Source: Escherichia coli | Lineage (GTDB): Bacteria > Pseudomonadota > Gammaproteobacteria > Enterobacterales > Enterobacteriaceae | DNA: 1,316 nt | NCBI RefSeq assembly: GCF_003334335.1 | Contig: NZ_QOWQ01000112.1 | Reading direction: 5' to 3' (one strand) | Shown: in pieces, positions 1 to 347 of the stretch | Numbering within the stretch: position 1 is the first letter of the stretch | How the letters are laid out: the number at the start of each line of letters is the position of its first letter | Translations under genes and position numbers: made by a program | Notes under the pieces: model-generated | Database searches by the model: none | What the model was told of the DNA's origin: nothing | Seen by the model: the letters and a program-made list of their open reading frames with translations, nothing else

Positions 1-347
1 CTCCTGACCATGTCTTTTGCCACTGAGGGGGGCATCAGAATTACTCTGCCAGCATCAACATGCTCAACAGGCTCACCTGTTTCATCGTCAACACCGCACA
101 GGTAAAAACACTTCAGAAGCCTGATACGTTCCAGAATACCAACGTCATCCTCACCGGTGTGCCTGCATGCCTGCTCATGAACGGTATCATCAACATCTGC
201 GATTTCATTTTCCGAGGCGCAAACCTCCTCTTCCCACTCTGCCACACGCTGTGCGATATCCGCAGCACTCCCCGACATATCCGCCTCGCGCCCCAGCAGA
301 CCAGCCAGTTCACGAAGACGTTTCTGATTTTCTTCTTTTGTTGCCAT
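1..347 (-). CDS. FI: DNA-packaging protein FI-like (lambda gpFI family); 3'-partial, with the C-terminal part beyond the window start
   Basis: ATG at 347..345 preceded by a good SD. Hand translation of the minus strand is open for 115 codons down to position 3 with no stop: MATKEENQKRLRELAGLLGREADMSGSAADIAQRVAEWEEEVCASENEIADVDDTVHEQACRHTGEDDVGILERIRLLKCFYLCGVDDETGEPVEHVDAGRVILMPPSVAKDMVR. Its N-terminal 40 or so residues align with lambda gpFI as I recall it (MTKDEL-ARLRSLGEQLNRD...GTKEELALRVAELKEEL), and its position directly downstream of E matches lambda synteny. It is absent from the ORF track, presumably because no stop codon lies in the window. Confidence 0.7.
   Translation of the reverse strand, partial: MATKEENQKRLRELAGLLGREADMSGSAADIAQRVAEWEEEVCASENEIADVDDTVHEQACRHTGEDDVGILERIRLLKCFYLCGVDDETGEPVEHVDAGRVILMPPSVAKDMVR

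Follow-up and report, generated by a model that had tools for sequence, protein, structure and literature searches.

The FI gene at the edge of the window

The window, by which we mean the whole analysed stretch of 1316 nt from Escherichia coli, carries two real genes, both on the minus strand. The larger is the major capsid gene E of the phage 21 gp7 type, located at 399..1316, whose 5′ end is cut by the window. Residues 38-342 and the stop codon (399..401) are visible, which corresponds to 305 codons. The visible E protein is identical to WP_000522596.1 of E. coli JE86-ST05. It shows 95.6% identity to the E protein of phage 21 and 60% identity to lambda gpE, and it matched PDB entry 7VI9 at E=3e-132. 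This entry and 7VIK are among the solved capsid and procapsid structures of lambda, with which residue numbers run in parallel up to ~258. Directly downstream of E lies FI (1..347, minus strand), a gene for a lambda-type DNA-packaging chaperone. As a separate observation, a 133-bp part of E (1184..1316) matched positions 250264-250396 of record MT713136 with 97.7% identity. This is the end of the 254-kb record of Aeromonas phage AP1, where the segment is unannotated, and the match looks like an assembly chimera or contamination in MT713136.

The minus-strand frame from 347 to 1 was translated into 115 sense codons without any stop, with the N-terminus MATKEENQKRLRELAGLLGRE (= MATKEENQKRLRELAGLLGREADMSGSAADIAQRVAEWEEEV). 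The ATG start is at 347..345 and is preceded by a GGGAG Shine-Dalgarno sequence at 354..358, with a 6-nt spacer; other 21-type loci have AGGAGG or GGGGG at this position. All 115 visible residues are identical to RefSeq WP_000201508.1, a 122-aa "DNA-packaging protein FI" (gpFI) found in many E. coli prophages. Bases 2..1 of the window are the first two nucleotides of codon 116, and the visible part makes up the 5′ 94% of the gene. The whole window matched many complete E. coli chromosomes at 99.9% identity, and its last 420 nt are identical to E. coli JE86-ST05. The missing end was read from genomes that match the visible part of FI without a difference and the whole window at 99.9% identity. 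There the frame closes seven codons later, and the portion absent from the window consists of the residues SGMAVYA and the stop codon, 22 nt in all, for which C GGA ATG GCC GTT TAT GCG TGA is expected on the minus strand. The sequence-only reading, which had noticed an edge-cut FI-like gene with an ATG and a Shine-Dalgarno sequence at this place and proposed to extend it beyond position 1, was thus borne out by the translation, by the GGGAG motif, by the recovered stop and by the match of the fragment to PHROG 92 (8e-39). Just past window position 1, the start codon of FII falls inside the end of FI, as seen in JE86-ST05, where the two genes share the 8-nt overlap ATGCGTGA. The same overlap was seen in 21-type phages (locus L002, 7331..7338), while lambda has an 11-nt gap at this junction. 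The overlap of the FI stop and the FII start in 21-type phages suggests translational coupling.

The FI frame is missing from the program-made ORF list because the ORF tool omits reading frames that run off either end of the sequence. On the minus strand, the only entries under 1..347 are 113..313, a nested 66-aa ORF with a GTG start, and 310..372, a 20-aa ORF spanning the FI start. Long antisense ORFs are listed on the plus strand at 60..752 and 167..472. Three of these (113..313 minus, 60..752 plus and 167..472 plus) were considered as candidates for the true gene of this region, as they are what a mechanical list reports. None of them gave a PHROG match even at E<=1, and they were rejected as genes. 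All lie within or antisense to the strongly conserved coding sequence of FI and E, and no gene other than E and FI is annotated at this place in RefSeq and GenBank, so the chance that one of them is the true gene is negligible. The ORF at 113..313 is one base out of the FI frame and spurious, as had been suspected from the sequence. The practical lesson for annotation is that genes cut at the edge of a window go missing from mechanical ORF lists, and that a nested out-of-frame ORF may take their place. A promoter scan of the window found none. An Rfam search at E<=1 returned one sub-threshold snoRNA match (20.9 bits vs the 50-bit gathering score), which was dismissed as chance.

Between the E stop and the FI Shine-Dalgarno sequence, a GC-rich hairpin (391..371) is followed by a T-run, the whole element occupying 361..391 on the minus strand. 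A terminator scan classed it as similar to an intrinsic terminator, and the RNA fold has a free energy of -23.9 kcal/mol (z = -2.5). The hairpin is kept in all 21-type loci, and lambda has a hairpin and a T-tract of unrelated sequence in the same position. This suggests a conserved role at the E-FI junction, e.g., stabilisation of the 3′ end of the abundant E message or attenuation in the antiterminated late operon. Part of the FI Shine-Dalgarno sequence can moreover base-pair with an outer stem.

Family membership and synteny of FI

Membership of the protein in the lambda gpFI family (PF14000/PHROG 92) is solid. The 122-aa sequence matched Pfam PF14000 (Packaging_FI) at E=1.3e-15 and 58.5 bits, with residues 3-119 aligned to positions 1-131 of the 131-position model. 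It matched PHROG 92, "DNA packaging chaperone FI", at E=1.4e-41 (residues 1-121 against positions 1-127 of 128). In BLASTP, the identity to phage 21 FI was 58% (E=5e-44), and that to lambda gpFI was 29% over the full length (E=2e-9), rising to 42% over the first 40 residues. The N-terminal similarity to lambda gpFI that had been noted in the sequence-only reading was therefore found by database search as well, at a level far above chance, with both the window fragment and the full protein giving significant matches to the gpFI family. Neither the 122-aa protein nor its 115-aa fragment matched an NCBIfam family at E<=0.01, so the RefSeq name for FI rests on other evidence. A phmmer search against PDB sequences did not find 2LSM, the structure of the lambda gpFI C-terminal domain, and returned only a chance match to a racemase (E=1.1).

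The gene order agrees with this assignment. E adjoins FI in the window, and both JE86-ST05 and PhiR5_1 carry the head-tail order Nu1-A-W-B-C/Nu3-D-E-FI-FII-Z-U-V-G-T-H, which is that of lambda; in JE86 the series opens with the genes for small and large terminase, W, portal and protease/scaffold. We are highly confident that the minus strand of 1..347 comes from a phage-21-like lambdoid prophage of E. coli and carries most of its FI gene, which lies between E and the head-tail joining gene FII and codes for a DNA-packaging chaperone by homology to lambda. Within the lambda FI family this gene is routine, and RefSeq already names it.

Two other PHROG matches were recorded. One was to PHROG 2353 ("major head protein", 481 positions), where FI covered positions 361-476; this indicates that some phages carry, or are annotated with, E-FI fusions. 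Such fusions are a possible Rosetta-stone hint of interaction between the two proteins. The N-domain alone matched the 80-position PHROG 15460, which is labelled "terminase".

Domain architecture, predicted fold and allele variation of FI

An alignment of 47 homologues showed a near-invariant N-domain, a linker of variable length and sequence, and a C-domain that falls into discrete types. In the window, the N-terminal helical domain (residues 1-41) is encoded by 225..347 and is nearly invariant among 21-type alleles. The acidic linker (residues 42-71; 135..224) is unalignable between alleles and is predicted to be disordered. The presumed capsid-binding C-terminal domain, of the allele that we call type 0, is encoded by 1..134; its residues 72-115 are visible and it ends at residue 122. 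All three segments are on the minus strand. Compared with the window protein, the phage 21 allele is 80% identical in the N-domain and 64% in the C-domain, the PhiR12 type 90% and 40%, and lambda gpFI 42% and 22%. In agreement with this layout, megablast similarity to phage 21 extends across E and is lost at window position ~225, which is FI codon ~41, since the linker and C-domain diverge while the N-domain stays conserved.

An alignment of 47 family members, lambda-type sequences included, was used to build an AlphaFold2 model of FI, with an overall pTM of 0.40. Helices were predicted at residues 4-18 and 28-62, confidently only to about residue 46, and pLDDT was below 50 at residues 47-69. 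The C-domain was modelled with strands within residues 73-105, a helix at 107-116 and a strand at 119-121 (pLDDT 72-87). The two domains joined by a flexible linker, as in the gpFI family, are thus seen in the prediction. When the model was compared with the PDB by Foldseek, the top match was 2LSM ("Solution structure of gpFI C-terminal domain"), with a probability of 1.00, a target-normalised TM score of 0.74, an rmsd of 2.5 A over 55 columns, 24% identity and a modest E value of 3.2e-3. With the caveats of this E value and of the lambda-type sequences in the input, the C-domain is predicted to have the fold of the lambda gpFI C-domain. These data refine the earlier remark that FI looks divergent from lambda after about residue 45. 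The remark holds for residues 42-71, the unalignable disordered linker; residues 72-122 form a homologous domain that diverges fast and is predicted to have the lambda fold. Behind 2LSM, Foldseek ranked GINS subunits of archaea and eukaryotes ("DNA replication protein"), matched through their small beta domains (5GHS, 5GHR and 9MOJ; probability 0.95-0.97, TM 0.5-0.6), and this likeness is probably a generic resemblance of small domains.

The C-half of the window FI allele is present in 107 out of 5426 complete E. coli genomes, always on the chromosome and always annotated as gpFI; the 21-type E region was found in 1923 complete E. coli genomes. All 15 distinct DNA alleles of the window type keep the 369-nt frame. 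In the linker of this type, 4 synonymous and 13 non-synonymous polymorphic states were counted, and in the C-domain 11 synonymous and 7 non-synonymous states. This record bears on the reading that a defective prophage holds here a decaying pseudogene, which retains similarity to FI without its function. Such a reading could draw on the end of the window before the stop codon and on truncated FI fragments of 86-87 aa in some E. coli assemblies. Against it, the frame closes at residue 122 with ...GMAVYA in the genomes identical over the visible part, and because phage 21 FI has the same terminus, residue 122 is the natural end of the gene. The decay that the sequence-only reading had considered immediately beyond position 1 is thus not found. 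The intact alleles and the synonymous excess in the C-domain argue in the same direction, as does the complete head-tail module of JE86, which extends from terminase through the tail genes. Moreover, a 95% identical copy stands in the complete genome record of phage PhiR5_1 with the listed host E. coli C. We regard decay of this gene as very improbable.

FI fragments of 67-88 aa, which comprise the N-domain and part of the linker, are found in many E. coli assemblies (P0012, P0013, P0015 and P0060-P0072). Truncation or frameshift in decaying prophages could account for them, as could errors of assembly.

Co-variation of FI C-domain types with alleles of an E patch

The sequence-only reading had speculated that the divergence of FI could reflect co-variation with the E protein of the same element. 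This idea was followed in 330 loci retrieved from IMG/VR with five FI queries, each FI being paired with the capsid gene upstream, and it gained support, with exceptions: the C-domain types of FI track the alleles of E residues 141-200. The E protein of JE86 is 95-98% identical to those of phage 21, PhiR12_1 and PhiR5_1, but its FI is only 52-58% identical to the FI proteins of phage 21 and PhiR12_1. Overall divergence of E therefore does not explain the divergence of FI. The differences in E are concentrated in residues 148-190. They fall in a hypervariable patch, residues 141-200 (828..1007, minus strand), which has 2-4 times more variable sites than its flanks in an otherwise 95-98% conserved capsid protein.

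In 64 of the 66 distinct protein pairs on the 21-type backbone, the amino acid at E position 163 fits the C-domain type of FI. Isoleucine at this position corresponds to the window type, threonine to the phage 21 type and glutamate to the PhiR12 type; Y182 and F187 also mark the window type. The window itself holds a matched pair, i.e., the type-0 C-domain and the I163/Y182/F187 patch. Among 97 unique haplotypes, the association with the FI C-domain type peaks at E 141-200, with a mean normalised mutual information of 0.4-0.6 and a maximum of 0.96. Outside the patch, the value drops to 0.1-0.2 in either direction, the 360 nt on the FI side among them, and FII has 0.07-0.18. The four-gamete test against FI type revealed recombinants at 2 of 55 informative sites in E 141-200, compared with 31 of 54 in E 221-320, which is closer to FI, 23 of 40 in E 1-140 and 26 of 57 in FII. 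The agreement at residue 163 and this four-gamete contrast are consistent with direct contact between FI and E. Later scans revealed three further FI C-domain types, each with its own patch allele on the same E backbone. The sole basic C-domain type, that of PhiR12 (net charge +4), stands beside the E patch with the strongest negative charge (-11); the remaining C-domain types (-1 to -3) accompany patches of -6 to -8. Charge thus appears complementary in one of the pairs.

Exceptions to the pairing were also found. The lambda-type C-domain occurs with three different patches: with lambda E, with a 21-type E (locus L167) and with a chimeric E (locus L241). In locus L148, a PhiR12-type C-domain stands beside a window-type patch, which makes a mismatched pair. 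Two of these loci are mosaics in their own right. The FI gene of L167 (IMG/VR UViG_643348551_000006, 2501-2899) is a natural chimera of a 21-type N-domain with a lambda-type linker and C-domain, and its E has the 21 backbone with a distinct patch allele of its own (…NNITQAGGSEWSNQNRD…). In L241 (IMG/VR UViG_2874956758_000002), the first ~200 residues of the capsid protein have only a distant relationship to E, and the junction with a C-terminal third of lambda type lies near DTRRGSN; a lambda-type FI follows this mosaic capsid gene.

Two explanations of the pairing were weighed. The E patch and the FI C-domain type could be associated by shared mosaic ancestry, or by hitch-hiking of two old segments, with no co-adaptation of an interface. 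Being drawn from related prophages of E. coli, the haplotypes are not independent, and the patch is a dense cluster of substitutions, synonymous ones included, as expected of an imported cassette; the three patches that accompany the lambda-type C-domain and the mismatch in L148 fit this explanation too. Common descent has more difficulty with the ~360 nt that separate the patch from FI, and with FII, both of which are rich in four-gamete recombinants, whereas the patch between its flanks is almost free of them. Each of the three additional C-domain types has its own patch allele on one and the same E backbone, the sole basic C-domain type has a complementary charge pattern, and the published lambda model puts gpFI on the gpE lattice of the prohead. 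We therefore consider shared ancestry a possible but somewhat doubtful explanation. Our own leaning, held with limited confidence, is that the C-domain types of FI and the E patch alleles (about residues 148-190, best marked by the single residue 163) are lock-and-key pairs kept by epistatic selection despite recombination between them. Selection for a matched interface would give rise to such a pairing. The pattern falls short of proof because the haplotypes are related, the lambda-type C-domain accompanies three patches and L148 is mismatched.

If the lock-and-key reading is true, the E patch would mark the docking site of gpFI on the prohead lattice, with electrostatics adding specificity. 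Murialdo and Tzamtzis reportedly defined in 1997 an "EFi domain" in lambda E by FI-independent (fin) mutations, and the patch may correspond to this domain. The co-variation of E and FI is a modest side result of this analysis. Its added value is population-level evidence of matched pairs of FI C-domain and E patch, which offers a testable guess for the contact between the chaperone and the prohead.

Proposed role and comparison with known FI systems

In lambda, gpFI is bound to the gpE lattice of the prohead and assists formation of the complex of terminase, DNA and prohead (PMC4856287; PMC7889075). It enhances the packaging of DNA by terminase and is not part of the mature virion (PMC4856287; PMC7889075). 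For the window, the present data establish the identity of the gene, the architecture and predicted fold of its product, the synteny and the allele-specific pairing of C-domain and E patch; binding and chaperoning are carried over from lambda. By analogy, the protein encoded in the window would bind E and act as a packaging chaperone. Its C-domain (residues 72-122) would bind the E lattice of the empty prohead, and the remainder of the protein would help the terminase-DNA complex to dock on the prohead, leading to an efficient start of packaging.

The closest known relative is WP_000201508.1 itself, e.g., in JE86-ST05. It is identical to the window sequence at each of the 115 visible residues and throughout the 420 nt, and it has the same E and FII neighbours. 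No difference was detected, except that the window merely stops short of the last seven codons and the stop. The FI protein of PhiR5_1 (XSB41323.1) also has 122 aa and the same type of C-domain. It differs from the window protein by six substitutions, five of which are in the linker.

The FI protein of phage 21 (ORF1 of M81255; UMO75424.1) belongs to the same family, has the same architecture and occupies the same position after an E protein that is nearly the same. Nevertheless, its linker is unalignable with that of the window protein, the overall and C-domain identities are only 58% and 64%, and the similarity of the DNA ends at codon ~41. In the E patch, phage 21 differs from the window by I163T, Y182H, F187Y and Q190L. 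Lambda gpFI (NP_040588.1; C-domain PDB 2LSM) is a full-length homologue in the same gene position with the same predicted C-domain fold, and its function is assumed to be alike. It is longer by 10 residues, all of them in the linker, and the lambda FI and FII genes are 11 nt apart instead of overlapping by 8 nt as in the 21-type arrangement here. The E protein of lambda is only 60% identical to that of the window, and its FI retains 42% identity in the N-domain and 22% in the C-domain.
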